A DNA stretch of 64,000 bases from an uncultured delta proteobacterium (GTDB lineage Bacteria; Myxococcota_A; Polyangia; Polyangiales; Houyiibacteriaceae). Of the stretch, positions 20,899-42,435 are shown in pieces. Positions within the stretch are counted from its first letter, which is position 1. Every line of letters begins with the position of its first letter. The DNA lies in NCBI GenBank assembly GCA_963699755.1, contig CAVOVB010000001.1, forward strand, positions 96,001 through 160,000, read 5' to 3'. Position numbers and translations under genes: made by a program. The notes below the pieces were generated by a model, which was not told where the DNA came from, did no database searches, and saw only the letters and a list, made by a program, of their open reading frames with translations.

Positions 20899-20983
20899 GG
20901 TTCTTTGACCTACAAGTTGACGACCGCCGAAGCTTCTGCCCCAAACGCAGAGGCCGAAGCGAACAGGAAGGCGGACTCCGCCG

Positions 20984-21068
20984 GGAGAGGTGACCGAGTG
21001 GTCGAAGGTGCACGACTGGAAATCGTGTGTGCCGAAAGGTACCGGGGGTTCGAATCCCTTCCTCTCCG
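20984..21068 (+). tRNA. tRNA-Ser(GGA)
   Basis: Anticodon arm CACGA-CTGGAAA-TCGTG, variable arm, T arm. CCA not encoded (CCG follows). Confidence 0.95.
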
Positions 21069-21104
21069 CCGATCGGCGCTCCCGCCCTGGGGGCTCCGCG
21101 ATAT

Positions 21105-21184
<80 letters not shown>

Positions 21185-21244
21185 TTTTTTACGCTATCTT
21201 TGTGCATGGCGGGCAAGAGGTCTTACTCAGCGATGGAGCGAATC

Positions 21245-22021: not shown

Positions 22022-22056
22022 AGCGTGAAGCCACGTGGCTACGAAGTCGCTCTGCG

Positions 22057-22133
22057 TGGCGGACTCAAGAGGACTCGAACCTCTAACCCCCGGCTCCGTA
22101 GGCCGGTGCTCTATCCAATTGAGCTATGAGTCC
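22057..22133 (-). tRNA. tRNA-Arg(ACG)
   Basis: Reverse complement GGACTCATAGCTCAATTGGATAGAGC..CCGGC-CTACGGA-GCCGG..GGTTCGAGTCC..CCA, 77 nt. Confidence 0.95.
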
Positions 22134-22213
22134 CCGGGATGCGCACGGTAGCGGCCCCGTCTGGAGCGTCAAGCGCCCCGGCTGGCGGGGCCCATGGCGG
22201 AAGCCCCTACCGG

Positions 22214-22303
22214 CGGAGAGGAAGGGATTCGAACCCCCGGTACGGCTCTACACCGTACGGTCGCTTAGCAAGCGACTGCCTTCGACCACTCGGCCACCTC
22301 TCC
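22214..22303 (-). tRNA. tRNA-Ser(GCT)
   Basis: Anticodon arm GTCGC-TTGCTAA-GCGAC, long variable arm. CCA not encoded. Confidence 0.95.
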
Positions 22304-27755: not shown

Positions 27756-29552
27756 CTATGCGTAGAAAGCGGCGATCTCCGAGGCGTACTTCTCGTTCAC
27801 GACGTTGCGCTTCACCTTGAGGGTCGGCGTCAGCTCGCCCCCATCCACGCTGAATACGGTCGGGAGAACCTGGATCTTCTTGATCGTCTGGTAGCGGGCG
27901 ACCTTGGAGTTGCAGAGCTCCTGCACCTCCTTTTCGATGTAGCGCTTCACGTCTGCGTTCCGGGCCGCGGTTTCGACGTCGCTCAGGCCGGAAATCTGAG
28001 AGGCCACCTCGAGCTCCGGCAGGGCCTCGGGGTCGAGGACGATCAAGGCCGACAGATAGGGTTGCCGATCGCCCACCACCACGGCCTGCCCAACACCGGG
28101 GATCGCCTGCAGGTAACCCTCCATCTCGGCGGGCGCGACGTTCTTGCCGCCGGCCGTGATGATGAGGTCCTTCTTGCGTCCTGTGATCGAAATGTAGCCC
28201 TTCTCATCGATCGCACCTAGGTCGCCGGTGTGCATCCAGCCCTCGTCGTCGTAGAGCTGGGCGGTCTTGTCGGGGAGGCGATGGTAGCCCTTCACCATGT
28301 TGACGCCCTTGAGCATGATCTCGCCGTCCTCGGCGATCTTGGCTTCGACGCCGGGAAGCGGCTTGCCGATCGTCCCGAACCGGAGCTTTCCGTACGGCTG
28401 CACGGAGGCAAAGGCCGTGGTCTCGGTCATCCCATAGCCTTCGTGAATCGGCAGGCCGATCGAAGCGAAGAACTCGAGCGTCGAAACCGAAATCGGCGCG
28501 GCGCCACTGACCGCAACCTGCAGTCGATCCAAGCCGAGCGCTTCCTTGATCTTGGAAATGACGAGCTTGTTGGCGAGACTGCGGGAAATGCTCGTCACCG
28601 GACGACCCGTCGCGGCCTCCTGCTTGAAGGCCTCGAGCTCCGTCTTTCGCGCCCAGCTTGCAAGCTTGGTTTTGATGCCGGTGGCCTCGGCGAGCTTGCC
28701 GCGAAGCGCGGCCTCGAACTTCTCCCAAACGCGGGGAACGGCGAGGAAGAACGTCGGGTGCACTTCGACGAGGTAGTCTTTGATCTGCGTGAGGTCGCTG
28801 CAGTAGAACGTTTCAGACTTCAGCGTGAGCCCCGCGAAGTTGGTCATCCCCTGTTCCGCGGCATGGCAGAGTGGCAGATAACTGACCGCGCGCGTCTCGG
28901 TCTCGAGAAGCGTCGGAAATACCTCGGCCACAGCATTGGCGATCAGCTCGATCCCCCGATGGGTGAGCATCGCCCCCTTGGGCAGCCCAGTCGTGCCCGA
29001 CGTGTAGATCAACAGCGCGACGTCGTCCGTCTCGACCGCGTCGAGCCGCGCGTCTAGCTCCGCGTCGCTGATCGAATCGCCCTTCGCCATCAGCCCAGCG
29101 AGGGTGATCACCCGAGGGTCGCGCGAGCCGAGGTCATCCATCGTGACGATGTGCTCGATCGGACTTTCCCCTTTGGCGATCGAGAAGAACTTGTTGAGCT
29201 GAATCTCATCGTCACAGATGACGATTCTCGACTGCGCATTGTTGATGATGTAGGCCATCTGCTCCGGCAGAAGCGTCGTATAGAGGGGCGCCGGAATTCC
29301 CTGAGCGGCGTTGATCCCGTGCTGGCAGATCACCCAGTCGCGCCGATTGGCCCCGACGATCGCCACGCATTCCTCAGGCTGAAGCCCTAGCGCCATGAGC
29401 CCCTTCCCCACCCGCCGAACGCTGTTCCAGTACTCGGCCCAGGTCGAGGTCGCCCAGCCCCCATTCGAGTCCCGATCGTGAATGGCGGGATCGTTCGGGT
29501 GCGCGTCGGCCCAACCTTCGATCCGCGAAAGCATCGTTCCTTGCAACGTCAT
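27756..29552 (-). CDS. Long-chain fatty acid-CoA ligase (paralog 1)
   Basis: IYTSGTTGLPKG, EGYGMTE, HTGDLG, GRKKDLIITAGGKN, ELTPTLK. Confidence 0.92.
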   Translation of the reverse strand: MTLQGTMLSRIEGWADAHPNDPAIHDRDSNGGWATSTWAEYWNSVRRVGKGLMALGLQPEECVAIVGANRRDWVICQHGINAAQGIPAPLYTTLLPEQMAYIINNAQSRIVICDDEIQLNKFFSIAKGESPIEHIVTMDDLGSRDPRVITLAGLMAKGDSISDAELDARLDAVETDDVALLIYTSGTTGLPKGAMLTHRGIELIANAVAEVFPTLLETETRAVSYLPLCHAAEQGMTNFAGLTLKSETFYCSDLTQIKDYLVEVHPTFFLAVPRVWEKFEAALRGKLAEATGIKTKLASWARKTELEAFKQEAATGRPVTSISRSLANKLVISKIKEALGLDRLQVAVSGAAPISVSTLEFFASIGLPIHEGYGMTETTAFASVQPYGKLRFGTIGKPLPGVEAKIAEDGEIMLKGVNMVKGYHRLPDKTAQLYDDEGWMHTGDLGAIDEKGYISITGRKKDLIITAGGKNVAPAEMEGYLQAIPGVGQAVVVGDRQPYLSALIVLDPEALPELEVASQISGLSDVETAARNADVKRYIEKEVQELCNSKVARYQTIKKIQVLPTVFSVDGGELTPTLKVKRNVVNEKYASEIAAFYA

Positions 29553-29694: not shown

Positions 29695-29718
29695 TGGCGG
29701 AGGAGGAGGGATTCGAAC
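29695..29718 (-). repeat. att core, displaced copy of the tRNA-Ser(TGA) 3' end
   Basis: TGGCGGAGGAGGAGGGATTCGAAC, identical to 40442-40465. Confidence 0.95.
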
Positions 29719-29824
29719 ACTCCGCGAATTGACCCTCTAAACGAGATCACCGGGTTTTTAGTCAGGGCACCGCATGAGCGGGGCCGCAAAAACCCCAACG
29801 AAAGCCGAGAGCGCGCCGAGGGCG

Positions 29825-29842
29825 TGACACCGGCCGTGACAC
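29825..29842 (+). repeat. TGACAC tandem pair, candidate integrase arm-type site
   Basis: TGACACCGGCCGTGACAC, matching TGACACCGGCATGACAC at 40390-40406. Confidence 0.6.
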
Positions 29843-29950
29843 TTCCGGCGCACCGCATTGGTGCGGGCGCCTACCCCAATTGCAAAGAGCCGGCCTCCAT
29901 CACAAGGCCGACTCCCTTTTGCGTGCCCCAAGCACGCTCATGGATCACAG

Positions 29951-30286
29951 ATGTCCAGACCATACAGACAAACCGCCAATTCGTCCAGACGACAGCTCAC
30001 GCTCCTACGCGATGACGGCATCGAACATCGCGTGCTCAAGCGGGCCTGCGACGAAATCAGAGACCGCCCGACCACGGCGCCGCTTTGGATTTTCCGGGTC
30101 GCCCAACACCAGCGGGCCGGGCGGCTGCCGTATCGCAAAGCCTGGGACCGGCTCTATGAGGCCGGGCTACGGGCTGGGATGAGTGAACAGCGGATCACCC
30201 GGCACCTGTATTCTGGCTTCGCGCTGGCGAACGCCTTCAAGAGCGAGCCGCCCGAGCTCCGCGCGCTGGCAGGGGGGCTGCAATGA
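29951..30286 (+). CDS. Hypothetical protein (element)
   Basis: ORF coupled by an ATGA overlap to the next gene. Start uncertain. Confidence 0.55.
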   Translation: MSRPYRQTANSSRRQLTLLRDDGIEHRVLKRACDEIRDRPTTAPLWIFRVAQHQRAGRLPYRKAWDRLYEAGLRAGMSEQRITRHLYSGFALANAFKSEPPELRALAGGLQ

Positions 30287-30468
30287 CCCGCGCCGACGAA
30301 ATGATCGCCTGCGCGCTCGAGTCGCTGGTCGACGACGGGATCTTCGTTCGAACCGGCGACCTGAACGACCACGGCGATCCCATCTACAAGCTGGCTCCCG
30401 GGCTCGAACGCCTAAGCGCCGGCGAGCTCGAGGCGCTGGCTGACTGCATCGGAGAGTGGAAGGCGTGA
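30283..30468 (+). CDS. Small hypothetical protein (element)
   Basis: 61 aa. Overlaps the upstream stop (ATGA) and the primase start (GTGA). Confidence 0.6.
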   Translation: MTRADEMIACALESLVDDGIFVRTGDLNDHGDPIYKLAPGLERLSAGELEALADCIGEWKA

Positions 30469-31436
30469 TCTCCATCGTCCGCAACCGATTCGTGAAGGGC
30501 TGGCCCCGTCACGATGACGGAGAACCCGTCTACGTGCGTGAGCTTGGCGAGGCGCTGCCCCGTCCGTATCGCACCGATGCTCACTTCATGGCCTACGCCT
30601 CGCCCAACGCTCGCAGGCTGACGCGCGAAGCCCTCGAGCAAGGCGTCACGGCGCCGATGTCTGCGATCGTTTTCGATGTCGATTGCGCTGACGTTCACGG
30701 GACCAGCGAGCCCGCACCGCAGAGCTGGCGGGATGCGTTGCTCAAGAAGATCGCGCGACTCTCCGAGGTTCACCCTGCCCCGTACACCTACGGAACCCGC
30801 GGCGGTGCCCGCATCCTGTACCGGCTGCCCGAACCGTTCGAGATCAAGTCCCACGATGATGCGCGCCAATGGTCGCAGCTCTACGCGGTGGCGCTGGCCT
30901 ACCTCGCGCGACGGTTCGGCATCGGCGCTGACCCTGCGTGCCACGACTGGCAGCGGTTGTTTCGACTCCCATTCGCAACGCGCGAGCCGGATGGGAAGCC
31001 GGAAGCCTGGCCGACCCTGGGCGACCCGCACAACATCGGGACGCTGAGGATTCACGCGATGGTCGACGACGTGAAGGCCGCGCGGGCGAGCTCGAAGGCG
31101 TTCTCGAGGAGCCGGATTTCGGACGTCACCCTTTGCGCCTCGAGCGGCGAGGGTTTGCTGTACCACCTACTCCGCGCGCGCGGCGATATTCTCCGCGAGC
31201 ATACGCAGCCGGGCGCCTACGTCGTCCGATGCCCAAGGGAGTCCGAGCATTCAACCGGGCGCACCGGAGATGGATCGACTCTGCTTTACCTGCCCGCGGT
31301 GGGTGAACAGGTCGGCGCCATCCATTGCCTTCACGCGCATTGCTCGAACCTGAGCGTGCGTGATTGGGTGCGGTGCTTTGAGGACCGCGAAGTACAAACG
31401 GCCCGACGCGCGGCCGGGATTGAGAGGGCTGCGTGA
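30465..31436 (+). CDS. AEP-superfamily primase with a C-terminal Zn-binding domain
   Basis: IVFDVD (motif I), YGTRGGARILY (motif II variant), DPACHDWQRLFRLP (motif III), C-terminal CP...H...CLHAHC. Confidence 0.75.
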   Translation: MISIVRNRFVKGWPRHDDGEPVYVRELGEALPRPYRTDAHFMAYASPNARRLTREALEQGVTAPMSAIVFDVDCADVHGTSEPAPQSWRDALLKKIARLSEVHPAPYTYGTRGGARILYRLPEPFEIKSHDDARQWSQLYAVALAYLARRFGIGADPACHDWQRLFRLPFATREPDGKPEAWPTLGDPHNIGTLRIHAMVDDVKAARASSKAFSRSRISDVTLCASSGEGLLYHLLRARGDILREHTQPGAYVVRCPRESEHSTGRTGDGSTLLYLPAVGEQVGAIHCLHAHCSNLSVRDWVRCFEDREVQTARRAAGIERAA

Positions 31437-32713
31437 GCTTTGTCACCATGCCGGAAGAGCCGGCCAACGGAACGCCCGCTAACGTCCGTCCGATCAAGTC
31501 CTGGAAGAAACGCCTCACGAAGGGACCGAAGGGCGGGATCAAGAGCACAGTTTCAAACGCGGTGCTGATCTTGTCCCACGATCGCGAATGGGGCGGCGTG
31601 CTGGGCTACGATGAGCGCGGCGAGGAGCCGATTCTACTTTCGAGGCCGCCGTTTCTCGATTGCCCCGACAGCATCCTACGGACACCGCGTTCGCTCACTG
31701 ATGCCGATGACGTTCGAACGACGCAATGGCTCGAGGAGCGGTATGGGATGTCGCAACCGCTAACCCAGGCTCACGCTGCATTGAACGCGGTCGCGCGCAC
31801 ATCGCCGTTCGACCGCGTGCGGGATTACCTCGACGGGCTCACCTGGGACCGAGAGAACCGCCTAGACGACTGGACCACCGAGTACCTTGGGACGCCTCGA
31901 ACCGCCTACACGAAGGCCGTAGGGCGGCGTTGGATGATCTCCGCGGTGGCCCGTACCTATGAGCCGGGATGCAAAGCAGATCATGTGATCGTGCTGGAAG
32001 GCAAACAGGGGATCGGCAAGAGCACCGCGCTCCGAATCCTGGGCGGGGACGAGTATTTCGGCGACGACATCCCGAGCCTGGGCTCGAAGGATGCGCAGCA
32101 ATACCTGGGAACCCTCTGGATCGTGGAGCTCGCCGAGATGGATGCTGCCACGAAATCCGAGGCGTCCACGCTCAAGCGGTTTCTCACGACCACGACAGAC
32201 CGCTATCGGCCGCCCTACGGTCGCCGGACCATCGTACACGCGCGGCGGTGTGTGTTTGCCGGCAGCGTCAACCTCGAGGCGTACCTCAAGGATTCAACAG
32301 GCGGCCGGAGGTTCTGGCCGCTGCAATGCTCCACGGTCGACCTCGAGGCCTTGGCCCTATCCCGAGACAGCCTGTGGGCCGAAGCGGTCGCCGCGTATCG
32401 CGCGGGCGAGAAGTGGCACCTCGACGATCCCGAGCTCGTCAGTCTCGCCGCGAGCGAGCAGACCGAACGCCTCGAGCGCGACCCCTGGCATGACAAGATC
32501 GCCGAGCACATCGCCAAGCCCATCGTGACGTTCATCACGACCCCGGACCTGCTGGAGCACGCCCTTGGGATGGACGCCGCGAAGATGAACAAGGCGGACA
32601 GCAACCGAGTCGGCGCCGTTATGCGGTCCGAGGGCTGGCAATATGGCGAAGGCGATCAGCGCCGCCGAGGCTGGCACCGCCCACCCCACGCAACCCACGC
32701 AAGTCCCAAATGA
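31433..32713 (+). CDS. VapE/VirE family P-loop helicase/ATPase
   Basis: PGCKADHVIVLEGKQGIGKST, WIVELAEM, DRYRPPYGR, LKDSTGGRRFWP. Confidence 0.9.
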   Translation: MSFVTMPEEPANGTPANVRPIKSWKKRLTKGPKGGIKSTVSNAVLILSHDREWGGVLGYDERGEEPILLSRPPFLDCPDSILRTPRSLTDADDVRTTQWLEERYGMSQPLTQAHAALNAVARTSPFDRVRDYLDGLTWDRENRLDDWTTEYLGTPRTAYTKAVGRRWMISAVARTYEPGCKADHVIVLEGKQGIGKSTALRILGGDEYFGDDIPSLGSKDAQQYLGTLWIVELAEMDAATKSEASTLKRFLTTTTDRYRPPYGRRTIVHARRCVFAGSVNLEAYLKDSTGGRRFWPLQCSTVDLEALALSRDSLWAEAVAAYRAGEKWHLDDPELVSLAASEQTERLERDPWHDKIAEHIAKPIVTFITTPDLLEHALGMDAAKMNKADSNRVGAVMRSEGWQYGEGDQRRRGWHRPPHATHASPK

Positions 32714-32839
32714 GATGCGTGGGTGGAATTCCGAGGGTTTTCAAGATGATCACACATCCACGCAACTATGCATGACGTACCTAATGTGCGTGCGCGCGCG
32801 AAGGTGCAAAGAACCGGGAAAAGATGCGTGGATGCGTGG
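32686..32839. repeat. Six CCACGCA/TGCGTGG heptamers, candidate replication origin
   Basis: CCACGCA at 32686, 32695 and 32758. Inverted TGCGTGG at 32716, 32825 and 32833. Confidence 0.6.
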
Positions 32840-32856
32840 GTGAAAGGAATGGACCG

Positions 32857-33174
32857 ATGACCGGCACCAACGAACCAACGAACCCCCAAACCCAAACTGA
32901 CGCTGCAAGCGAAGCGATCCGAACGCTCTGCGAGATCGTGTCCGAGCTCGACCAGGCGATAGGCTCGCTCTCCGAGCGACACGGGGCGCCCTTCACTGCC
33001 GGCGCGATGCTGTTTCTAGCGCAGGGCATGATGGCGATGGCCGAAGAGCACGGGACCGCGCCGGACGCGAAGTTGTGCTGCAGCCTGCTTTGCCGGCACC
33101 ACGGGCTGCGCGACCCATTCCCGGAGACGTTGGCGCGGGCGAAGGCGTTGCTGGGGGGTGCGGGGCAGGGGTGA
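32857..33174 (+). CDS. Hypothetical protein (element)
   Basis: About 105-aa helical ORF after a purine-rich RBS-like tract. Confidence 0.5.
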   Translation: MTGTNEPTNPQTQTDAASEAIRTLCEIVSELDQAIGSLSERHGAPFTAGAMLFLAQGMMAMAEEHGTAPDAKLCCSLLCRHHGLRDPFPETLARAKALLGGAGQG

Positions 33175-33269
33175 GGGGGTGGGCGCACCCGTTGCGTCGA
33201 CACTCCCATGAAACGCAGAGCTTGCGTCTTCGATGCAATCGAATTTCGGGAAGCAAACGCGAATCTGGC

Positions 33270-33285
33270 GGGAACGAAACTTGCA
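33270..33285 (+). promoter_or_regulatory. Possible sigma-54 promoter for the cargo gene
   Basis: GGGAACGAAACTTGCA: GG-N10-GC with a TTGCA -12 box. Confidence 0.4.
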
Positions 33286-33351
33286 CCCCGAATGCGTGAC
33301 CCGTTCCTGGTGACACCCCCCCTTCGCCGCGAACGGCGAAAGGAGCAGGCC

Positions 33352-35148
33352 ATGGAAGCGCACCGTTGCCCGTCGAGTTTGAAGCAGCGAGTTTGGTTCT
33401 CCCCCTATCTCCTGGCCGTCGCGCTGATGCCGGCTTTTATCCAGATCGACTACAGCGGCTGCTTCTACTACGGCGACTCGAGACTCTCGGAGCTCGAACT
33501 GATAGTCGAGGGCGAGAACCGAATCACTGGGTTTGATTCCGACCAACGAAGCTACGACGTAGTGTTGCCATTGGGTACGGCGGAAGCACGAGTCCGCTCC
33601 GTCGCCAACGATCCCGAGGGCCGCGTCTGGGTCTTCGTGCTCATTGACGGCGAGCGCTTTACGTATCTCGACGACGGCCACGGCGGCTCGGACATCGTCG
33701 TGCCCCTCTCGCCAGGGTCAAGTGTATTGCAGGTAGCAGTGGCACCGCATGGTCGAGCTACCGATTTCTATGAAGTGGCGATAGAGATTGGGATCGACCT
33801 GTGCGCGGGTGCGGACTGCGACGACGGCAACGACTGCACCGCTGATATTTGCGATCCGGCGGACGGGTCATGCACGAATGATTTGCTTCCCGAGGGTACG
33901 CTCTGCGGGGTTGACGGGGTGTGTGAAGCTGGGGCATGCCGGGAGAGGAGCTGGGGAACGCCCGTGTTTATCCAGAGCAACGCTGCCCCGGAATGGGCCC
34001 CCCAGCCAGTCGTCGACACTAGCGGGAATGCCACTGTCGTGTGGGTCGGAGTCGATGGGGTCGACTACGGGATCTGGGCCAACCGCTACACGCCCGGGGC
34101 TGGATGGGGGACGCCGGAACTCATCGCGACTGGCATTGACCAAGTACGTGTACCCAGATTAGCCGTCGAACCCAACGGGAATGTCATCGTGGTGGGGCAC
34201 CAGTACGATGGGTCCGAGTTCCGCATCTGGGCCAACCGCTACACGCCCGGGGCTGGATGGGGGATGCCGGAGTTTGTCGCGAGCAGCACCGGAGGGAACA
34301 TATACAACCCCCGGGTAGCCGTCGACCCCAGCGGCAATGCCATTGTGATGTGGCTCCAGCACGATGGGGTCGACTACGGGATCTGGGCCAACCGCTACAC
34401 GCCCGGGGCTGGATGGGGGACGCCGGAACTCATCGCGGTCGACGTTGATAATTGGTTCCAGCTAGCCGTCGACCCCAATGGGAATGCCATTGTGATGTGG
34501 GACCAGTACGATGGGGTCGACTGGGGGACCTGGGCCAACCGCTACACGCCCGGGGCTGGATGGGGGACGCCGGTGCCTATCCAGAGCAACGGCTATGCTG
34601 GCGGCGCCATGCTAGCCGTCGACCCCAATGGGAATGCCATTGCGATGTGGCACCAGTACGATGGGTCCAAGCACCACATCTGGGCCAACCGCTACACGCC
34701 AGCGACCGGCTGGGGGACGCCGGTGTCTATCCAGAGCAACGAAAGCGATGCTACACATCCCCAGATAGGAGTCGACCGCAACGGGAATGCCATTGTGGTG
34801 TGGCTCCAGCACGATGAGCCCGAGCACCACATCTGGGCCAACCGCTACACGCCAGCGACCGGTTGGGGGACGCCGGTGCCTATCCAGAGCAATGATACAG
34901 GCGCCGTTTTAGCCGTCGACCCCAATGGGAATGCCATTGCGATGTGGCACCAGTACGATGGGTCCAAGCACCACATCTGGGCCAACCGCTACACGCCAGC
35001 GACCGGCTGGGGGACGAGCGAGGAGATCGACACCGATCCTCTCGGATCGTCCGAGTGGAAGTTGGCGATTGGCCCGAACGGAAACGCCGTCGCTGTGTGG
35101 GCGAAACATATTCCCTTCATCGGCATTCAGGCCAACCACTTCGAGTAA
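33352..35148 (+). CDS. Exported cargo protein: cadherin-like beta-sandwich, Cys-rich linker and ~8-blade beta-propeller repeats
   Basis: AAGGAG RBS, hydrophobic leader with SGC, LSELEL..GFDSDQRSYDV, CDDGNDCTADIC, seven WANRYTP..GWG repeats. Confidence 0.75.
   Translation: MEAHRCPSSLKQRVWFSPYLLAVALMPAFIQIDYSGCFYYGDSRLSELELIVEGENRITGFDSDQRSYDVVLPLGTAEARVRSVANDPEGRVWVFVLIDGERFTYLDDGHGGSDIVVPLSPGSSVLQVAVAPHGRATDFYEVAIEIGIDLCAGADCDDGNDCTADICDPADGSCTNDLLPEGTLCGVDGVCEAGACRERSWGTPVFIQSNAAPEWAPQPVVDTSGNATVVWVGVDGVDYGIWANRYTPGAGWGTPELIATGIDQVRVPRLAVEPNGNVIVVGHQYDGSEFRIWANRYTPGAGWGMPEFVASSTGGNIYNPRVAVDPSGNAIVMWLQHDGVDYGIWANRYTPGAGWGTPELIAVDVDNWFQLAVDPNGNAIVMWDQYDGVDWGTWANRYTPGAGWGTPVPIQSNGYAGGAMLAVDPNGNAIAMWHQYDGSKHHIWANRYTPATGWGTPVSIQSNESDATHPQIGVDRNGNAIVVWLQHDEPEHHIWANRYTPATGWGTPVPIQSNDTGAVLAVDPNGNAIAMWHQYDGSKHHIWANRYTPATGWGTSEEIDTDPLGSSEWKLAIGPNGNAVAVWAKHIPFIGIQANHFE
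34075..35016 (+). repeat. Intragenic tandem repeats of 144-156 bp
   Basis: Identical core TGGGCCAACCGCTACACGCC at 34075, 34228, 34384, 34531, 34681, 34834 and 34978. Confidence 0.92.
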
Positions 35149-35194
35149 GTATGCCCCAGAGACCCCTAGATCCTGCAGCTCGACGGGCTCTAGC

Positions 35195-35236
35195 GACTCG
35201 ATGTGGGACGTGGGCGCGTTTGAGGTGCAGCCGTAG
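35195..35236 (+). pseudogene. Relic 3' end of a choice-of-anchor-Q-type gene
   Basis: Reads DSMWDVGAFEVQP-stop, resembling the C-terminal CD(I/V)GAFE motif, with no intact upstream gene. Confidence 0.45.
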
Positions 35237-35270
35237 GCGTGACCGTGGGTAGCGCAACGCCCTGCCTATC

Positions 35271-35315
35271 GGGTCCTTCCTAGCGTCGGCAGCCGAGAGG
35301 CTGGAAGGCTCGCAA
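35271..35315 (+). other. Candidate lambda-like cos site (cosQ-like GGGTCCT with downstream CTCGC)
   Basis: GGGTCCTTCC at 35271 and GGCTGGAAGGCTCGC at about the lambda cosN spacing. Intergenic, upstream of the capsid gene. Confidence 0.4.
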
Positions 35316-35461
35316 GGAATGATCGCTGAGAGGGAAATAGGAACGCGCCAAAACCAAGCGACCGCGCCGACCTCGCACATTTTGAGCCCTTTCAGCACCC
35401 TGGGGCGCTAAACATGAGCTTTCCTCACTTTCTGCTATGCTTGGGATGGAATGGAAAGACT

Positions 35462-37318
35462 ATGGCCAACAGATCGGAAGACGGCCCACCCGGGCAACTA
35501 GCCCGACGCCGAGCGGACGACGTGCCCTCGTTGATCGAAGGCATTTGGCGCCCGCAGTCGGCGAACGAAGCCAGCCGATCCGTGGAGGTCGTGTTTTCGA
35601 GCGGCGCGGACGTGCTTCGACAAAGCATGTTCGGCGACTACATCGAACGGCTACGCATTGACGCCGACTCCGTTGATCTGAGTCGACTTCGAACCGGGGC
35701 GCCGGTCTTAGACAGCCATCAAAGGGACGGCGTGCGCAACGTCTTAGGCACCGTGAGCGACGCTTGGATCGAAGGCGATCGCGGCGTGGCAAGAGTCCGT
35801 TTCAGCGAACGAGCTGCGGACGTTTGGAACGACGTGCGCGAAGGAATTCTGCGCCAGGTGTCGATCGGTTACTCACGCGATGCCGAGGTCGAGCTTGACG
35901 AAACGATCAACGGGGTTCCCGTGCGCGAAGTGACAAGGCTCACGCCCTACGAAATCAGTTTTGTCAGCATCGGCGCCGACCCTCATGCACAGGTGCGATC
36001 CCATGAAGTTACAACCGCGGTTCGGCCGCAGGAAGATGAACAAATGAGAGTGACAGACATCGAAGGCGAGCGCGCACGGTGCGCGTATATCGTCGAAAAC
36101 TGTGAGCGGCTTGGCTTGCCGGCTGAGTTCCGACGCGAGCTGATCGACAAAGGCATCAGCCGAGCCGAAGCCGCCGAGCGAATCCTCGAGTACAAGGCAA
36201 ACGAGCCGGGGCAGGTCGAAGAGATCGATCACAGGATCGAATTTTCCGACAGCCGAGCCCGCGACTTCGTCTCGGACGCCGCGGAAGGCTTGGCGGTTCG
36301 CGAGCGTGTTCTCAAGAGTACCGACAACGCCAATGCACGCGAGTTTGCCGGGCTGAGTTTCCTCGAAGTGGCGCAGCGTGCGGCAGGCATAAACGGCACC
36401 GATCTACGGGGCACGCGGGATCACATGAAGCTGCTACAGCGTGCGTGGAATACGAGTTCAACGTTGAGCGATACCGTCGCCGCGTTCAGCACCCGAAGCA
36501 TGATGGAAGCCTATGAAACGCCGCCGAGGACGTTCCTCGATGCGTTCCGTGAGTCCACGAGCCGCAACTTCCGAGCGAACGAACGAATCCGGCTTTCGGA
36601 CGCGCCCGCCTTGGCCGTTGTCGCTGAGGGCGATGCGTTCGGCGAAGTGAGCCTCAGCGATCGCAAAGAGACGTACACGGTTTCCAAGCGAGGCCATATC
36701 ATCGCGTTCACGTTTGAGAGCATGGTGAACGATGATTTGCAGGCGCTCGTTCGACAAAGCGAGCGCGCTGGTTTCAGCGCCGCGACGGCAGAGTCCGATG
36801 CTTTTTGGTCGGTCGTGACGGCGAACGGGAACCTTTCGGATTCCGCGCCCATCTTCGGCGCAGGAACCGGCAACTTGACGACCGGCGTTGCACTGACAGC
36901 CGACGCCCTCGAAGACATTCGCGAGAGCTTCCGAAACGCGGTCAGCGAAACCGGCGTGAAGTTGAATTTGACGCCGCGGTTCCTCTTCGTGGCACCGGAC
37001 CTGGAGCGGGCGGCGGAAAAGCTTCTGCGCCCGCCAACGAATCACAGCACGGCAACGATCGGCGACGTTCTTTCAAACCAGTACGCTTCGCAACTCGAGC
37101 TCCGCGTCGAAAGCAGGCTGCCCGCCGGTGACTACATGGTCGCCGCCGATTTCCGACAAATCGACACCGGCGAATATGCGTGGCTCCAAGGGACACGCGG
37201 ACCGCGGATCGAAAGTGACGAGGACTTCACCACCGCGGGAATCAAGTACCGCGTGATGGACGTGTTCGGCGCTGGCGTCATCGATCGCCGAGGACTGCTG
37301 TACAACGATGCGACCTAA
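35462..37318 (+). CDS. Prohead protease (HK97-type S78/U35) fused to a major capsid protein (Mu gpT/Gifsy-2-like)
   Basis: Protease motifs APVLDSH, ILRQVSIGY, PYEISFVSIGAD. Capsid motifs ETYTVSKRG, MVNDDLQA, LNLTPRFLFV.PDLE, EYAWLQG..GP, FGAGVID.RG. Alternative start at 35414. Confidence 0.88.
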   Translation: MANRSEDGPPGQLARRRADDVPSLIEGIWRPQSANEASRSVEVVFSSGADVLRQSMFGDYIERLRIDADSVDLSRLRTGAPVLDSHQRDGVRNVLGTVSDAWIEGDRGVARVRFSERAADVWNDVREGILRQVSIGYSRDAEVELDETINGVPVREVTRLTPYEISFVSIGADPHAQVRSHEVTTAVRPQEDEQMRVTDIEGERARCAYIVENCERLGLPAEFRRELIDKGISRAEAAERILEYKANEPGQVEEIDHRIEFSDSRARDFVSDAAEGLAVRERVLKSTDNANAREFAGLSFLEVAQRAAGINGTDLRGTRDHMKLLQRAWNTSSTLSDTVAAFSTRSMMEAYETPPRTFLDAFRESTSRNFRANERIRLSDAPALAVVAEGDAFGEVSLSDRKETYTVSKRGHIIAFTFESMVNDDLQALVRQSERAGFSAATAESDAFWSVVTANGNLSDSAPIFGAGTGNLTTGVALTADALEDIRESFRNAVSETGVKLNLTPRFLFVAPDLERAAEKLLRPPTNHSTATIGDVLSNQYASQLELRVESRLPAGDYMVAADFRQIDTGEYAWLQGTRGPRIESDEDFTTAGIKYRVMDVFGAGVIDRRGLLYNDAT

Positions 37319-37718
37319 CAAACTTCGCGGTGTGTTTAGTCTGCACGCCGAGTTGGTCCCCGTTCCTTCCTGTGCTTGAGCCTGCGAGTCAGTAGTTTTT
37401 TCGTCATCACTCCTGACTCGCAACCCCGTGCCCTCGTAGCAAACCTCGATTTTTCCATTTCTGGGGGGCGCTGCGGGGGCACACCTAATTTCGATGACGC
37501 GCCCTCGCGCAGAGGGTTCGCCATGAGCCTCCGCCGGTCTGGAGTTCGGTGGGGGCTCGCCTAATTCTGGTGAAGCCGCAACCCCGCCGCAGTCGTCCAG
37601 CCCCAGCGCAAACACCGACCGCCGAGGATGGCGCGAGAGGCCGCCAAATCGTTTCCAGGTGCTAGGCATCGTCCGGAATTGCGCGCGCGGAGACTGGCCG
37701 CTATCTCTGTTAACAATG

Positions 37719-37765
37719 TTGACAGGCAAGACAGGCCAGGCTAGCGTCCTTCCCATGAGACAGGC
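37719..37765 (+). promoter_or_regulatory. Sigma-70 promoter overlapped by GACAGGC repeats
   Basis: TTGACA (37719), 17 nt, TAGCGT (37742). GACAGGC at 37721, 37730 and 37759. Confidence 0.6.
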
Positions 37766-37784
37766 AATAGGGCAGGCTTCAGGC

Positions 37785-37976
37785 ATGGCATCCCGGTTGA
37801 TTTCGTTCCGCGTAGATGACGAGCTCGCAGACCGGCTCGACGCAGAGCTCGAGGAGATGAGGCAACGCGCGGACCTCGATGGGTACGAGTTGAGCGAGCC
37901 CGAATACTTTCGGATGCTGTTTCGGCAGGCACTATCCGACCGCGAAGCCAAGCGAAAGAAAAGCCGCAAGCGGTAG
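37785..37976 (+). CDS. Ribbon-helix-helix (CopG/Arc-like) DNA-binding protein
   Basis: SRLISFRVDDELADRLD..SE.EYFRML pattern with a basic tail. Confidence 0.65.
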   Translation: MASRLISFRVDDELADRLDAELEEMRQRADLDGYELSEPEYFRMLFRQALSDREAKRKKSRKR

Positions 37977-38029
37977 AAAGGAAAACGCCTCGCAGGGTCT
38001 AGGAAACCCTCGAGGCGTATGGCTCGAGC

Positions 38030-38683
38030 ATGACGAGCGAGAAAAAGGATACAGCACCGGGCGAAGAGGGCAAGGCGGAAAAGCCGGCGCCATCGCGTGT
38101 TAGTCCGATGGTCCTTCGCATGATCGACTGGACCGATGGACAGAGCCTCGCCGGCGCTGCCGATCCTGCAATCGAGCTCGCCCGCGGGTTTCATCGACTT
38201 CTAGATCGCGCCGACCTAGCGCCTAAGGACCGGAGCGCGGCGCTGGTCCTTTTCGATGCCTTGCTGGACGCCCTACTTGCTGGCGATCCACGGGCTGCCG
38301 TGGCGGCGGCTGCGCATCTGATCGATCGAGGCCACCATGCGCGCCGAGTGGGAGCGGCTGGGCCAGGTCGCTGGATCGAGGCTTTGAAATCGCGCCTTCC
38401 GACAATCCAAGCCGGCGACAGCGCGGGCGCCAAGAGAATCGCGATCACGCTGCTGCATGTCGACCTTTGTCTATCGGACGATCGAGCGGCGGCGCTGGAC
38501 ATCGGGGAGACAATCGAGCTGATCGGTCGGGAGCTGCCGCCGGGCGCCGTTCTTTCGCGAAAGGTGCTGCTCAACATCGCTTCCGAGCTCGCCGCACGGT
38601 CCGGGGCTTTCGATTGCAAGGACCCGAAGGCAGCGAAGGACAAACTCCGCAAGCACTTTTCGAAGGGCTCACCGGATGCCTAA
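38030..38683 (+). CDS. Hypothetical protein (element)
   Basis: 217-aa helical ORF with no motif I recognise. Confidence 0.55.
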   Translation: MTSEKKDTAPGEEGKAEKPAPSRVSPMVLRMIDWTDGQSLAGAADPAIELARGFHRLLDRADLAPKDRSAALVLFDALLDALLAGDPRAAVAAAAHLIDRGHHARRVGAAGPGRWIEALKSRLPTIQAGDSAGAKRIAITLLHVDLCLSDDRAAALDIGETIELIGRELPPGAVLSRKVLLNIASELAARSGAFDCKDPKAAKDKLRKHFSKGSPDA

Positions 38684-38687
38684 TTTC

Positions 38688-38701
38688 GGAAACGCGTTTC
38701 C
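38688..38701. promoter_or_regulatory. Perfect 14-bp palindrome, candidate operator
   Basis: GGAAACGCGTTTCC upstream of the XRE-xis-int operon. Confidence 0.5.
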
Positions 38702-38742
38702 AAGTGACCGACCCCGTCCGAGGCTGGTAGTCAACACTCACA

Positions 38743-38955
38743 ATGACCGGCACCGACGATCAAACGAGGCGACGAATCCGGCAACTCCGCGACGCTGCCG
38801 GACTGACGCAAACCCGGCTGGCTTGGCGCACCGGCATCCATCGAAGCACGCTGGCTCAAATCGAGCTTGGCTATATTCGGCTGTACCCGGGGCACCTGAA
38901 ACGCATCGCGCGGGCGCTGGACGTGACGTTGGACGAGCTCCGGGGGGCGGCGTGA
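38743..38955 (+). CDS. XRE/Cro-family HTH regulator
   Basis: IRQLRDAAGLTQTRLA..TGIHRSTLAQIELG..LKRIARALDV. Confidence 0.88.
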   Translation: MTGTDDQTRRRIRQLRDAAGLTQTRLAWRTGIHRSTLAQIELGYIRLYPGHLKRIARALDVTLDELRGAA

Positions 38956-39251
38956 AGATGGCCCCGGTTCACCGGCTCCCCGATGTTGGTGACGGTGACG
39001 ATAGTCGCCGACTGGTCGACATGACCTGGGGCGAGCTTCGCGCGCTCCTGGCCGATGAGCTGCGGCGACTCAGTGACCCTGATACCCAGATCATGAAGCC
39101 AACCGAGTTCGCTAGGCTGTTGGGCGTTGCGGAAAAGCGCGTTCAAGAGTGGTGCGAAATGGGGATGCCGTTCATCCCAACCGGCGACATCAAGGGCAAG
39201 CGCATTCGAACGCAGAGTGCGCTGGCATGGCTGGAGGCCCGTGGTGGCTAA
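38952..39251 (+). CDS. Excisionase-like HTH protein
   Basis: GTGA overlap with the XRE gene. IMKPTEFARLLGVAEKRVQEWCEMGMP..RIR..ALAWLE, directly upstream of the integrase. Confidence 0.75.
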   Translation: MKMAPVHRLPDVGDGDDSRRLVDMTWGELRALLADELRRLSDPDTQIMKPTEFARLLGVAEKRVQEWCEMGMPFIPTGDIKGKRIRTQSALAWLEARGG

Positions 39252-40392
39252 GAGGCGTGGCCCTACCGGCGAGGAGCTGCCCGCGGGCATTTCCTGGGAT
39301 GCATCGAAGAGGCGCTACCGCGTCCGCGGCAAGCATGGGGGCAAGACCCTGTCCGATGCGATGAAGAGGAAGCGCGACCTCGACCGTGAGGCGCGTGGTG
39401 TGAAGCCTCACGTACTGTCTGCCTACTTCGACCACTGGGCGGCCTGGCAGCAGCGCAAGGGTCGCCGCAACGTGAAGAAGGACCGCCGCCGCCTCGAGCT
39501 CCACGTCGAACCCACGTTCGGGCAGAAGGCGTTGACTGGCTTGACGCCGCCCGAGCTCCTCGATTTGTATTGGAAGCTCTACGACAGCGGCGATGGTGTG
39601 ATCGGCGCCCGGACGATTCGGGACGTGAACGGACTAATCAGCAGTGTCTACTCGTTGGCGGTGTTCGAGGGGTTGGCGGACTACAACCCAGCAACGCAGA
39701 TGCCGCGCGGTTCGATGCCGAAGGTCGGCGACAACCCCTGGGAGAGGTACGAACCGGGGGAAGTTGTGACCCTGCTTACCGACGAACGAATCCGGCTCGA
39801 CCGCCGCGTGCTTTACGCTCTGCTCTTCTGGTTCGCGGACCGCGAGGGCGAGGGCTGCGGGTTCACGTTTGAGGACTACGACCGCCTCCCGAAGCCTCTA
39901 GGCGCGATGGCAATCGACAAGCAGTACCAGGGGCAGCCGTTGAAGGGCAGCCGAGATGACTACATCGCCGCGCGTCGATTTCCGGTGCATCCCGAAGCCG
40001 CGGCCTTGATCGCGCGCTGGAGATTGTCGGGCTTCCCGTCGATCTTCGGCCGAACCCCTCGATGCGATGACCCGATCGTGCCTAATCCCCGCACCATGAA
40101 GGCCCGCAAGCCGAACGCGGTCTACAAGGCGCTGATCGAAGATGAGAAGCGCGTCGGCATCGAGCACAAGAAGGGTCGCGCGACCCACGGGTTCCGCAAG
40201 TGCTGGATCTCGATGGCGCATGAAGCCGGGGCCAACCGTGAAGCCGTTCGCGTTCTCACACACACTGGGCGGTCGCGCGATGTGCTGGACCGCTATGCAC
40301 TCTGGTCCTGGGACAAGCTCTGCGAAACTGCGGCGCTCGTCGAGCTCCCCGAGACTGCACAAGTGATCGCGTTAGGGGGCCGTCGTGCATGA
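39241..40392 (+). CDS. Tyrosine recombinase/integrase
   Basis: SAM-like LELHVEPTFG, catalytic R (ADREGE), HGFR, THT and Y (DRY). Next to att and the tRNA. Confidence 0.88.
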   Translation: MVAKRRGPTGEELPAGISWDASKRRYRVRGKHGGKTLSDAMKRKRDLDREARGVKPHVLSAYFDHWAAWQQRKGRRNVKKDRRRLELHVEPTFGQKALTGLTPPELLDLYWKLYDSGDGVIGARTIRDVNGLISSVYSLAVFEGLADYNPATQMPRGSMPKVGDNPWERYEPGEVVTLLTDERIRLDRRVLYALLFWFADREGEGCGFTFEDYDRLPKPLGAMAIDKQYQGQPLKGSRDDYIAARRFPVHPEAAALIARWRLSGFPSIFGRTPRCDDPIVPNPRTMKARKPNAVYKALIEDEKRVGIEHKKGRATHGFRKCWISMAHEAGANREAVRVLTHTGRSRDVLDRYALWSWDKLCETAALVELPETAQVIALGGRRA

Positions 40393-40406
40393 CACCGGCA
40401 TGACAC
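40390..40406 (+). repeat. TGACAC tandem pair, candidate integrase arm-type site
   Basis: TGACACCGGCATGACAC between the integrase stop and the att core. Confidence 0.6.
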
Positions 40407-40441
40407 CGTTTGCGTTCGTCGCAGAAAACCCAGCGCGAAGT

Positions 40442-40531
40442 TGGCGGAGGAGGAGGGATTCGAACCCCCGGTAGAGTCGCCCCTACAACGGATTTCAAAT
40501 CCGCCGCCTTCGACCGCTCGGCCACTCCTCC
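40442..40531 (-). tRNA. tRNA-Ser(TGA), integration target
   Basis: Reverse complement GGAGGAGTGGCCGAGCGGTCGAAGGC..GCGGA-TTTGAAA-TCCGT..GGTTCGAATCCCTCCTCCTCCGCCA. Confidence 0.95.
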
Positions 40532-40647
40532 GTGAGGGGGCGATTTAGCACAGGCTTCGCTCGGTTGCCCTTCCCATTCGAGTCGATCTCGGCCTATATT
40601 TGGCGGTCCCCAGACGGTGGGCGGCTGGGCACTCGAAAGGTGACGCT

Positions 40648-42435
40648 GTGGCGACTGACACGATTCCAAATCGACTTCTGCAAAGAGCGAAAAGGACCCC
40701 CAACGATCCTGCGTACTACGTACGCGAAGGCGGCAGCTGGAAGCCGACGAGCTGGGGCAGGTACTCCGACCAGGTGACGCAGGCCGGGCGCGCGTTGATC
40801 GCCCTTGGCTTCAAGCCAGGACAGACGGTTTGCATCCTCGGGTTCAATCGCCCCGAATGGGCGATCATCGACCTCGCCACAATGGGTGCCGGCGGCGCGC
40901 CCGCTGGCATCTACACCACCTGCTCCCCCGTCGAGGTTCGTTACATCGTCGCCCATGCCGAAGCGCCGGTCATCATCGTCGAGAATGAAGATCAGTGGCG
41001 CAAGGTTCTAGCGGAACGCGAGAACATGCCGAACCTGAAGCACGTCGTCACGATGAAGGGCTGTCCCCCGATCGCTGACGAGATGGTGATGAGCTGGGAA
41101 GAGTTCATGGCCAAGGGCGACGAGGTCGAGAAGCAGGCTTACCTCGGCCGCGTCGAGAGTCTGAATCCGAAGGCGCTTGCAACTCTGATCTACACCTCCG
41201 GCACGACGGGCCCGCCCAAGGGCGTCATGCTGAGCAACGAGAACCTGGCCTGGACGTCGAACATCGCCATCCAGATCACGACGATCAACTCGACGGATTG
41301 CTCGCTCTCCTATCTGCCGCTTTCGCACATCGCCGAGCAGATGTTCACGCTGCACATTCCGATCACCACCGGCGCGCGGGTGTACTTCGCCGAGTCGATC
41401 GAAGCGGTTCCCGAAAACCTCAAAGAGGTTCAGCCCACCATCTTCTTCGGCGTGCCGCGGATCTGGGAGAAGTTCCACGCCGGCATCTCCGCCAAGCTCG
41501 AGGAAGCGACGGGTGTGAAGGCCAGGCTGGTGAAATGGGCGATGAAGGTCGGCTGGGAGGCCAACCAAAGCCCCGAGGGCACCAAAGGCCTTCAATATGC
41601 GCTCGCCAACAAGCTGATCTATTCGAAGCTCCTGCCAGCGATCGGCATGGGCAATGCCCGGGTTTGCGTCACCGGCGCGGCACCCATTGCACGCGAGGTG
41701 CTCGAATTCTTCGCGAGCTTGGACCTCGTCGTGCTCGAGGTCTATGGGCAGTCGGAGGACAGCGGCCCGACCAGCTTCAACACCCCGACCCGGTATCGTT
41801 TTGGCAGCGTCGGTCCCGCACTGCCGGGGGTCGAGGTGAGGATCGCCGAAGACGACGAGATCATGGTCAAGGGCCCCAACGTGTTCATGGGTTACTACAA
41901 GGACAAGGAGGCAACCGACGAGACGCTCACCGACGGTTGGTTGCATTCGGGTGACTTGGGCGCCTTCGATAAGGACGGGTTCTTGAACATCACTGGCCGC
42001 AAGAAGGACATCATCATCACCGCCGGCGGCAAGAACATCACGCCGAAGAACCTCGAAGCGGCCATCAAGAACCATCCGCTCGTCGACGAAGCCGTGGTGA
42101 TCGGCGATCGTCGCAAGTACCTGAGCGCGCTCGTCACCATCGATGCCGAGGCGGGCCCGACCTGGGCTGCAGCCAATGGCGAAGATGCCAGCGCGCTACA
42201 CAAAAGCCAGAAGCTCAGGGCGAGCATCCAGGCGCACATCGACGAGATGAACGCCCATTTCGCGCGCGTGGAGCAAATCAAGAAGTTCACCATTCTCAAG
42301 CGAAACTTCAGCATCGAAGATGGCGAGCTCACGCCGACCTTGAAGGTGAAGCGGGCCAAGGTGAACGCTCACTTCGCCGAAGACATCGAGAAGATGTACG
42401 ACGAGGGCGGCGCGCAGGCCCAGCCGAGGGCGTAG
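40648..42435 (+). CDS. Long-chain fatty acid-CoA ligase (paralog 2)
   Basis: IYTSGTTGPPKG, YGQSE, HSGDLG, GRKKDIIITAGGKN. Confidence 0.92.
   Translation: MATDTIPNRLLQRAKRTPNDPAYYVREGGSWKPTSWGRYSDQVTQAGRALIALGFKPGQTVCILGFNRPEWAIIDLATMGAGGAPAGIYTTCSPVEVRYIVAHAEAPVIIVENEDQWRKVLAERENMPNLKHVVTMKGCPPIADEMVMSWEEFMAKGDEVEKQAYLGRVESLNPKALATLIYTSGTTGPPKGVMLSNENLAWTSNIAIQITTINSTDCSLSYLPLSHIAEQMFTLHIPITTGARVYFAESIEAVPENLKEVQPTIFFGVPRIWEKFHAGISAKLEEATGVKARLVKWAMKVGWEANQSPEGTKGLQYALANKLIYSKLLPAIGMGNARVCVTGAAPIAREVLEFFASLDLVVLEVYGQSEDSGPTSFNTPTRYRFGSVGPALPGVEVRIAEDDEIMVKGPNVFMGYYKDKEATDETLTDGWLHSGDLGAFDKDGFLNITGRKKDIIITAGGKNITPKNLEAAIKNHPLVDEAVVIGDRRKYLSALVTIDAEAGPTWAAANGEDASALHKSQKLRASIQAHIDEMNAHFARVEQIKKFTILKRNFSIEDGELTPTLKVKRAKVNAHFAEDIEKMYDEGGAQAQPRA

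Follow-up and report, generated by a model that had tools for sequence, protein, structure and literature searches.

The phage satellite P4 reshapes the capsid protein of its helper with Sid and Psu, and SaPIbov5 is said to carry a capsid homologue, Ccm. In the SatelliteFinder models, as outlined in the passages on them in de Sousa et al. 2023 (PMC10085698), the core of a phage-inducible chromosomal island (PICI) comprises an integrase, a regulator, a primase-replicase, a capsid-morphogenesis gene and terS; the capsid-forming type (cf-PICI) adds terL, portal, adaptor and connector, with 9–11 core components, and in the cf-PICIs of Firmicutes the capsid and prohead protease are merged. According to the relevant parts of the respective papers, the VEIMEs have no capsid genes (PMC9618062), and the EPIP satellites carry TerS, a major capsid protein (MCP), a scaffold and a tape-measure protein (PMC12822802). 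Two described groups come close to the locus reported here. The PICI-like tycheposons of Prochlorococcus (Hackl et al., bioRxiv 10.1101/2020.12.28.424599) are described in the text as carrying a tyrosine recombinase, xis, primase/helicase and 'either a terS or MCP', and a figure legend uses tRNA-Ser(TGA) as an example tRNA label. The portal-less 'mini' HK97 genomes (Nat Commun 2026, PMC13669383) are presented, in the sections describing them, as 5–11.6 kb units with an integrase, an excisionase and a Rep/helicase, in which MCP and scaffold are the structural genes, and a satellite hypothesis is named there. The element examined here lies within a 64,000-nt stretch (the window) of contig CAVOVB010000001.1 from an uncultured delta proteobacterium (assembly GCA_963699755.1, positions 96,001 to 160,000). 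With moderate confidence, we read it as an integrative, self-replicating element of the phage-satellite type that supplies only a capsid shell.

The element is inserted at the 3′ end of a tRNA-Ser(TGA) gene and is bounded by a duplicated 24-bp core. ARAGORN called the intact tRNA-Ser(tga) gene at 40442–40531 on the minus strand, and RF00005 matched it with 59.9 bits as the sole match in an Rfam scan. A repeat search found a perfect 24-nt direct repeat at 29695–29718 (attL) and 40442–40465 (attR), with a spacing of 10,747 bp; what is repeated is the terminal 3′ segment of the tRNA gene. By our own arithmetic, about 3e-7 perfect 24-mer pairs would be expected by chance within 13 kb. Both flanks were then compared with 15 congeneric loci. 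The right-hand homology began at window position 40442 in 10 of them and at most 2 nt away in 13, and seven loci (G278, G410, G411, G408, G418, G413 and G319) contained an empty site, aligning through the attL copy, where only one att copy stands between the acyl-CoA synthetase gene of the left flank and the tRNA gene, all three being contiguous. This comparison identifies the 10.7-kb unit as an insertion into a conserved site, and it bears out the att repeats and the unit length given in a preliminary description of the locus made from the letters alone. The G+C content of the element was not distinct from that of its surroundings, and tblastn found it to be single-copy in the assembly.

The surroundings of the insertion site showed further features. 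Two paralogues of a long-chain acyl-CoA synthetase (~40% identity) flank the element at 27756–29552 (minus strand) and 40600–42435 (plus strand) and are divergent around the tRNA gene. Four more tRNA genes (Ser-cga, Ser-gga, Arg-acg and Ser-gct) are clustered at 20811–22303, 18 kb upstream, and several congeneric loci have a similar cluster ~5–9 kb from tRNA-Ser(tga). In two other congeneric loci, tRNA-Ser(tga) is separated from the left-flank gene by ~2 kb of DNA of no recognised kind, at ~7728–10035 of L204 (genome G405) and ~2132–4106 of L205 (genome G402). Against the element proteins, these inserts gave only tblastn matches of 60 aa or less, if any, and they could be remnants of other elements.

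The gene that sets the element apart lies on the plus strand at 35414–37318 (the database form starts at 35462 and has 618 aa). Its product matched PF25209 (E 1.6e-30), PF04586 (Peptidase_S78, E 2.3e-7) and PF10124 (Mu-like_gpT) in Pfam, and it aligned end to end with phrog_4523, 'major head and protease protein', over residues 46–632 (E 6.9e-130). The match to NF045541, 'prohead protease/major capsid protein fusion', had an E-value of 3e-133 and a score of 445.6 bits, which is below the 525-bit cut-off. An AlphaFold (AF2) model built on 25 sequences, with a mean pLDDT of 77.6, was divided into three parts, namely a beta-rich part (35–170), a helical part (199–360) and an HK97-like domain (360–618). 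Within the protease part, H86, S134 and E164, which we take to be the catalytic residues, are invariant between the window and all eight close metagenomic relatives. Profiles and model together show that the gene encodes a complete, full-length protease-scaffold-HK97 capsid fusion.

A Foldseek search with the capsid model returned 374 PDB chains at E ≤ 0.001, which were phage capsids, including those of SaPI1 and a cf-PICI, and encapsulins, the latter among the top-ranked matches. The structural likeness to encapsulins, together with the possibility raised in part of PMC13669383 for integrase-bearing genomes of 5–11.6 kb with MCP and scaffold as the only structural genes, gives some room to the idea that the element makes up an autonomous 'mini virus' of the HK97 type that does without a portal, or that it carries the gene of a compartment resembling an encapsulin; the shell would package the element without a terminase or enclose a protein cargo. 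The capsid domain groups by sequence with phage capsids of Mu-GpT/lambda modules, and a prohead protease fused to a capsid protein is a feature of phage heads; this kinship and this fusion ruled out an encapsulin as the main interpretation and also speak against the broader idea. In addition, the replication genes described below are a primase and a helicase rather than a rolling-circle Rep, and no lysis or entry function is present, so that we regard an autonomous virus or compartment as very improbable.

A gene call based on G+C at third codon positions (GC3) gave eleven plus-strand genes, all co-oriented and each with an intact open reading frame (ORF), and nothing convincing on the opposite strand. 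When these ORFs were searched against Pfam, PHROGs, NCBIfam and PADLOC, none matched a terminase, portal, connector, tail or lysis family, in agreement with the preliminary description. The genes for replication and integration that were named there as intact are indeed uninterrupted; the integrase, the VapE helicase and the capsid protein are supported by profiles, and the primase by structure and domain fusions.

The putative primase, prim326 (30456–31436, 326 aa), has a C-terminal Cys/His cluster and matched nothing in Pfam, PHROGs or NCBIfam, and a sequence search of the PDB returned nothing relevant. Its neighbours in the Atlas included RepB_primase and BT4734-like_N clusters (0.96–0.97), and at least 141 homologue clusters were found, some of them named from metagenome-assembled genomes (MAGs) of Polyangiales, Polyangiaceae and Myxococcaceae. 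In relatives, the domain forms the N-terminus of proteins that end in D5_N/DUF5906, DnaB_C or VapE helicases, and other relatives stand beside a SNF2-type helicase in phage-like contexts. The AF2 model had a pLDDT of 91.7, and the top of its Foldseek list in the PDB consisted mostly of enzymes of the archaeo-eukaryotic primase (AEP) type (LigD polymerase, Prim-PolC, the D5/E5 AEP domain and RepB'), with modest scores (best E 6.2e-4, TM ~0.3). On the strength of the Atlas neighbours, the homologues, the helicase fusions and the AEP matches, we accept prim326 as an AEP-fold primase that works with VapE. The start of the VapE-family helicase gene (31433–32713) overlaps the primase stop, and its product matched PF05272 (E 3.6e-79) as well as phrog_1313 (E 3e-97) and phrog_256 (E 2e-94), both annotated 'DNA helicase'.

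The tyrosine integrase is encoded at 39244–40392 (382 aa in its database form; the longest ORF starts at 39127) and matched phrog_1 (E 1.3e-24) and Phage_int_M (E 3.4e-6). It has homologues in 33 further clusters at E ≤ 1e-20, and 20 of these are 44–84% identical. Directly upstream, at 38958–39251, a 97-aa ORF encodes a MerR/HTH_17-like winged-helix protein that shares 51% identity with the product of the ORF preceding int in another genome of the genus (G075). Its profile matches point in two directions. HTH_17 (E 0.0048, below the cut-off) and the excisionase family phrog_66 (E 0.0097) are found beside the N-terminus of phrog_57, 'terminase small subunit' (E 9.4e-7, positions 9–62 of 199), and a weak phmmer match (E 1.6e-5) to a protein that belongs to the TerS cluster in the module of a related phage. 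Position and size favour an Xis/AlpA-type role; alternatively, the ORF may represent a Nu1-like DNA-binding domain alone. The excisionase listed in the preliminary description corresponds to no more than the weak HTH_17 match, and its statement that neither AlpA nor TerS is recognisable holds for TerS, of which no family scored above its cut-off, and is doubtful for AlpA because a MerR/HTH_17-like ORF lies directly upstream of int.

With these genes, the element could follow a satellite cycle. Infection by a helper phage would release expression through the regulators, Int and Xis would excise the element as a circle, and the primase and helicase would amplify that circle. The fusion protein would then assemble on the helper portal and mature by itself into a capsid, plausibly a small one fit for ~10.7 kb, and the terminase, connectors and tail of the helper would package and deliver the element. 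Our best guess for the helper is a phage with a head of the type that has a GpA/Nu1 terminase and a lambda-type portal, since the nearest phage relatives of the capsid gene pair with those. Induction, excision, replication and assembly on a foreign portal, and with them the helper, the packaging and the mobility, are steps that we infer.

To place this layout, relatives were sought within the genus and the class. The capsid gene was present in 4 of 55 genomes of the genus, in none of them with a terminase or portal beside it. In G278, a capsid fusion with 39% identity lies in a 9,792-bp unit at tRNA-Asp that is bounded by perfect 51-bp repeats and also holds an integrase, an HTH_17 protein, an MT-A70 methylase and a D5-like protein, again with no terminase or portal. 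In G403, the capsid protein lacks the protease domain (41–42% identity). Ahead of its gene are a homologue of prim326 (38%), an ORF of 581 aa and a gene for an HTH_17 protein, and directly after it comes a large serine recombinase, beside tRNA-Met. Since these two elements differ from that of the window in their modules yet share the portal-less state, that layout has persisted in the genus through divergence of the capsid to ~40% identity and through exchange of recombinase and replication modules. Across the class, 7 of 401 sampled genomes had the capsid gene. Three of the seven (G164, G368 and G364) belong to another bacterial family. In these, an integrase and a replication gene resembling DnaB or IstB accompany the capsid gene, and one of them also has a baseplate gene similar to Mu GpP; no terminase or portal was found in their scanned ORFs (the scan covered 53 proteins overall). 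A second VapE-bearing cluster was seen at a contig end of G278 (L212, G278:C6:380000-394222, ~9974–13738), where ORFs of 437, 73 and 141 aa accompany a VapE that is 37% identical to that of the window.

The close relatives of the capsid in the protein database number eight, with 43–76% identity, and all are metagenomic. No contig was shared among the match lists of the capsid, primase and integrase relatives, so the modules look shuffled. A metagenome scan with the primase alignment found the capsid fusion in none of 80 loci (tblastn), which often end just past the match, the census of downstream genes covering 15 loci. Distant relatives were collected from species genomes (GTDB) and IMG/VR as 160 loci at ~30% identity, and after gene calling and clustering 147 loci, including five from the genome search, had a scorable capsid ORF. 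Full phages, with head modules and tail genes, made up 39 loci; in 48, only a head module was seen (TerL and/or portal, the rest being off the contig); 28 held a tail-less head module of TerL, portal and capsid, sometimes with a cement protein, followed by an integrase; 20 were portal-less, defined as having neither TerL nor portal although 4.5 kb or more was available upstream; and 12 had too little sequence to be classified. The cluster representatives included the GpA terminase, the lambda-type portal, a cement protein and Phage_attach.

Thirteen of the 20 portal-less loci were scanned with Pfam (149 proteins), and neither TerL nor a portal was detected in them. In six of the 13, no virion gene was recognised besides the capsid gene, a separate ClpP-type protease (L036 only) and a Nu1-type TerS (two loci). 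A replication module was recognised in four of these six (L059, L060, L078 and L036) and in neither L027 nor L057. The protease columns are largely kept among the portal-less rows (His in 18, Ser in 16 and Glu in 15 of 20); the remaining rows are nearly all gaps, owing to ORF starts or a separate protease gene, apart from two substitutions (Asp and Arg) in the Glu column. On a FastTree tree of 156 rows, in which the portal-less set includes L177 from G364 (no conclusion depends on this row alone), at least seven origins of the portal-less state are required if well-supported branches are respected. G278 and the eight metagenomic proteins grouped with the window (SH-like support 100%), and the sister of this clade was a 39-kb viral contig with TerL and portal. 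Recurrence in the genus, with two more capsid-bearing portal-less elements, and in ~20 of the 147 distant loci indicates that the layout is not a one-off deletion remnant. More tentatively, and with less confidence than we place in the satellite nature of the element itself, the survey would be compatible with a widespread, repeatedly evolved guild of 'shell-only' satellites between PICIs and cf-PICIs, in which a single polyprotein (protease, scaffold and HK97 capsid) would build and mature a probably small head of its own on a stolen portal, the terminase, connectors and tail being supplied by a helper with a lambda-type head.

Two other arrangements emerged from the same survey. The 28 tail-less units, mostly from Alphaproteobacteria, have a TerS-like gene, a GpA terminase, a lambda-type portal, the protease-capsid fusion and sometimes a cement gene, followed by an integrase and host genes (they include L016, L021, L025, L033, L037, L038, L041, L045-L047, L052, L056, L067, L068, L071, L086, L097, L106, L141 and L143), and they look like capsid-forming satellites built on the same capsid family. 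A Rhizobiales island was found in Ochrobactrum, Rhizobium, Agrobacterium and a Rhizobiaceae MAG (L013, L011, L074 and L008, and by gene pattern also L028 and L039). It consists of an integrase, DUF6074, an opposite-strand tape-measure-like gene (780–970 aa), an ORF resembling a tail-assembly chaperone, the capsid fusion and a Phage_attach ORF, with no terminase or portal, and its pairing of capsid and tape measure recalls the EPIP satellites as portrayed in the corresponding part of PMC12822802.

Several observations weigh against a satellite that supplies its own shell. A tape-measure-like PhageMin_Tail gene occurs in seven of the 13 scanned portal-less loci (four from Rhizobiales, and L014, L019 and L032), which makes the portal-less class a mixed one, and the eight closest capsid relatives could themselves sit in phages. 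The host assembly, a MAG of 5.35 Mb in 11 contigs that is 100% complete by markers with 9% contamination, yielded no helper when the whole of it was scanned for eight terminase, portal, capsid and tail families, namely TerL_ATPase (PF03354), Terminase_6N (PF03237), GpA_ATPase (PF05876), Terminase_3 (PF04466), Phage_portal (PF04860), Phage_portal_2 (PF05136), Phage_capsid (PF05065) and PhageMin_Tail (PF10145). A helper phage could have been left unbinned, as the assembly is a MAG. GpA-type terminases are also rare in the bacterial family, occurring in 1 of 60 other genomes, and neither a TerS nor a recognisable pac or cos site was found in the element. Only two public runs contain the stretch, both from one sediment-metagenome study and represented by short Logan contigs at a depth of ~4, and these contigs contained neither the attP joint (40441 to 29695) nor an empty-site joint. 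Thus, of the signs that the preliminary description had proposed to look for, neither junction-spanning sequence nor a co-resident prophage with a GpA-type terminase was found. No RNA run is listed as containing the stretch. One Logan contig (632 nt, run X1) starts exactly at 40442, the first base of attR and of the tRNA 3′ end, which may reflect a branch of the assembly graph at the junction; it was not counted as evidence.

Two further genomes of the genus belong with these adverse points, as they contain damaged relatives. The capsid copy of G075, at a contig start, is frameshifted into four frame pieces with one internal stop and is decaying; it is followed by xis (51%) and int (50%), and no VapE was found anywhere in that genome. 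G193 has ~2 kb of additional DNA at the corresponding tRNA-Ser gene, and all that it keeps there of the element is a 67-aa stub of the integrase C-terminus (64%). Such cases fit the explanation that the element of the window is itself a decaying remnant, in which the packaging genes were lost from an ancestor that had TerS, TerL and portal along with the capsid fusion, leaving an island that is immobile, or mobile only by its integrase, with a capsid gene that has no current role. It is in line with this explanation that 115 of the 147 scorable loci pair the same capsid family with a GpA terminase and/or a lambda-type portal, that further loss is easy to imagine from the 28 tail-less loci of TerL, portal, capsid and integrase, that no helper was found in the assembly, and that a host-derived cargo gene lies between the replication and the capsid genes. 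In contrast, decay would not predict the state of the element, with all ORFs intact and co-oriented, perfect att repeats, and the full capsid domain and the His, Ser and Glu columns of the protease kept. Nor does it account well for two other portal-less elements of the genus, bounded or intact, that have different recombinases and replication genes at 39–42% capsid identity. A remnant is therefore in our view unlikely, while being the foremost competitor of the satellite reading.

The cargo gene (33208–35148, 646 aa) was recognised by repeat search and tblastn. It is Cys-rich and contains seven ~50-aa repeats, encoded by seven tandem copies of ~150 nt. Its match to NF053835, 'PDIAV lipoprotein', was weak (E 5e-8, below the cut-off). 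By tblastn, the assembly has paralogues on four other contigs, the best on C10 (54% over 613 aa) and the rest on C7, C3 and C2, which marks the cargo as a gene of a host family carried along by the element.

A different role for the capsid gene would be interference, where the fusion protein acts as a decoy shell protein that poisons or diverts head assembly of an infecting phage, and the island serves mainly or wholly to shield the host population instead of carrying its own DNA. Satellites are known from parts of two published accounts (PMC9618062, PMC10085698) to block helpers via capsid redirection, and a capsid protein related to those of phages could co-assemble with them. Defence genes also lie near relatives of the capsid gene, with putAbiC adjoining it in the portal-less locus L057 and AbiTii near the element of G403. 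In the element itself, PADLOC found no defence system and no defence family apart from generic helix-turn-helix (HTH) matches. Furthermore, the protease and the scaffold part are conserved, although a decoy could dispense with both, and in known satellites interference does not exclude self-transfer. We consider interference as the main role to be rather improbable, below even the remnant explanation.

The remaining features of the element, all on the plus strand unless stated otherwise, are small ORFs and a repeat region. Both orf142 (29858–30286) and orf116 (32824–33174) have coding-like GC3 and no profile match in the four collections. After the capsid gene, a gap of 340 bp contains a hairpin with a 14-bp stem (37383–37422) and two 26-nt direct repeats (37475 and 37551) 76 bp apart. 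This unstranded region (37383–37576), found by repeat search, may act in packaging or else combine a terminator with operators. A search for iterons and cos sites by repeats found only the hairpin and this one 26-nt pair, and a promoter and terminator scan found sites no more numerous than in shuffled sequences. The next ORF, orf105 (37659–37976), matched no profile; it is a probable ribbon-helix-helix regulator, a candidate assignment that we presume from the ISFRVDDELADRL stretch in its translation. The Ala-rich orf217 (38030–38683) had no significant profile match, and its best Atlas score of 0.77 was uninformative. Finally, orf70 (38743–38955) encodes an XRE/Cro-type HTH regulator that matched the PADLOC families HTH_VI (E 4.3e-8), 'Control_protein' (E 3.6e-7) and capH (E 5.3e-7).

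If the element moves, a single structural gene suffices for a satellite to own a capsid, and the fused protease, scaffold and capsid would be a minimal head module that links the reshaping of a helper capsid (P4, PICI) with the making of a full head (cf-PICI). Such an element would further open a way into the study of phage parasitism in a bacterial group of sediment and soil. If the guild of shell-only satellites proposed above is real, this would be the first satellite lineage for Myxococcota-like bacteria, in which the replication and integrase genes are common. If the element is a mere remnant, it is an ordinary genomic island. The capsid family itself spans full phages, tail-less head modules with an integrase and portal-less elements, and is thus a natural system for studying how satellites originate from phages.

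The preliminary description proposed an undescribed satellite family with its own head and borrowed parts. The element is bounded, intact and of satellite size, and its layout recurs, all in keeping with that proposal, and the borrowing from a helper is again what we infer. The claims that it fits none of the known layouts and that its layout is wholly undescribed were overstated, as the MCP-carrying PICI-like tycheposons and the portal-less mini HK97 genomes are already in print. We found no literature report of a satellite with a protease-MCP fusion as its one structural gene and none of satellites in Myxococcota, though the supplements of the cited papers could contain such cases; in a myxophage survey (10.64898/2026.09.14.751636), satellites appear, in the portions that bear on this, only in the reference list.

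Among known satellites, the element resembles PICIs, as modelled in the SatelliteFinder passages, in its integrase, its candidate MerR/AlpA-type regulator, its primase-replicase and the presence of a capsid-related gene, in a length near the 9.5-kb median, and in the lack of tail and lysis genes. Component by component, the integrase is represented by the matches to phrog_1 and Phage_int_M and the primase-replicase by the AEP-fold primase with VapE; the below-cut-off MerR/HTH_17-like ORF and the XRE HTH ORF are candidates for the regulator (alpA/merR/stl). The capsid gene, which may or may not correspond to the capsid-morphogenesis component, is a full protease-scaffold-MCP fusion, in contrast to the size-redirecting accessory of PICIs. 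The element differs further in that no TerS was recognised, only the HTH part of the 97-aa ORF resembling a TerS N-terminus, and in that all genes are co-oriented with int last. P4 uses the capsid protein of its helper, reshaped with Sid/Psu, whereas the element has a capsid gene of its own, and no PHROG or Pfam match to Sid, Psu, Delta, Epsilon or the alpha primase-helicase was found among its 11 ORFs. It shares with P4, whose components are given here after the listing in PMC10085698, an integrase at a tRNA gene, a module of the primase-helicase type, a length of ~11 kb and, presumably, the need for a helper to provide virion parts.

The mini HK97 genomes, as characterised in the available text of PMC13669383, are similar in size, in having replication genes, an integrase and sometimes an excisionase, in lacking terminase, portal, connector and tail, and in having MCP and scaffold as the sole structural functions. 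They are mainly from the human gut, with a mean of 8.75 kb, an encapsulin-like MCP and often RepA, whereas the element combines a Mu-GpT/Phage_capsid_4 capsid and an S78 protease with an AEP primase and VapE in a sediment bacterium. Like the MCP-bearing tycheposons, it is a small integrative tRNA element with a lone capsid gene as its virion gene, and its layout matches that of the PICI-like tycheposons, which combine a tRNA-targeting recombinase, xis, primase/helicase and a lone MCP or terS; for these, the authors infer hijacking of helper particles, in the sections dealing with them. The likeness is one of description. The host phylum is another, no protease-scaffold-capsid fusion is mentioned in those sections, and the authors state there that PICI-like tycheposons never carry extra cargo, in contrast to the 646-aa host-derived gene found here. 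From cf-PICIs, the element differs in the absence of its own TerL, portal, head-tail adaptor and connector. It has in common with them the lack of tail and holin genes and an HK97 capsid protein and prohead protease of its own, merged as in the cf-PICIs of Firmicutes described in the pertinent part of PMC10085698.

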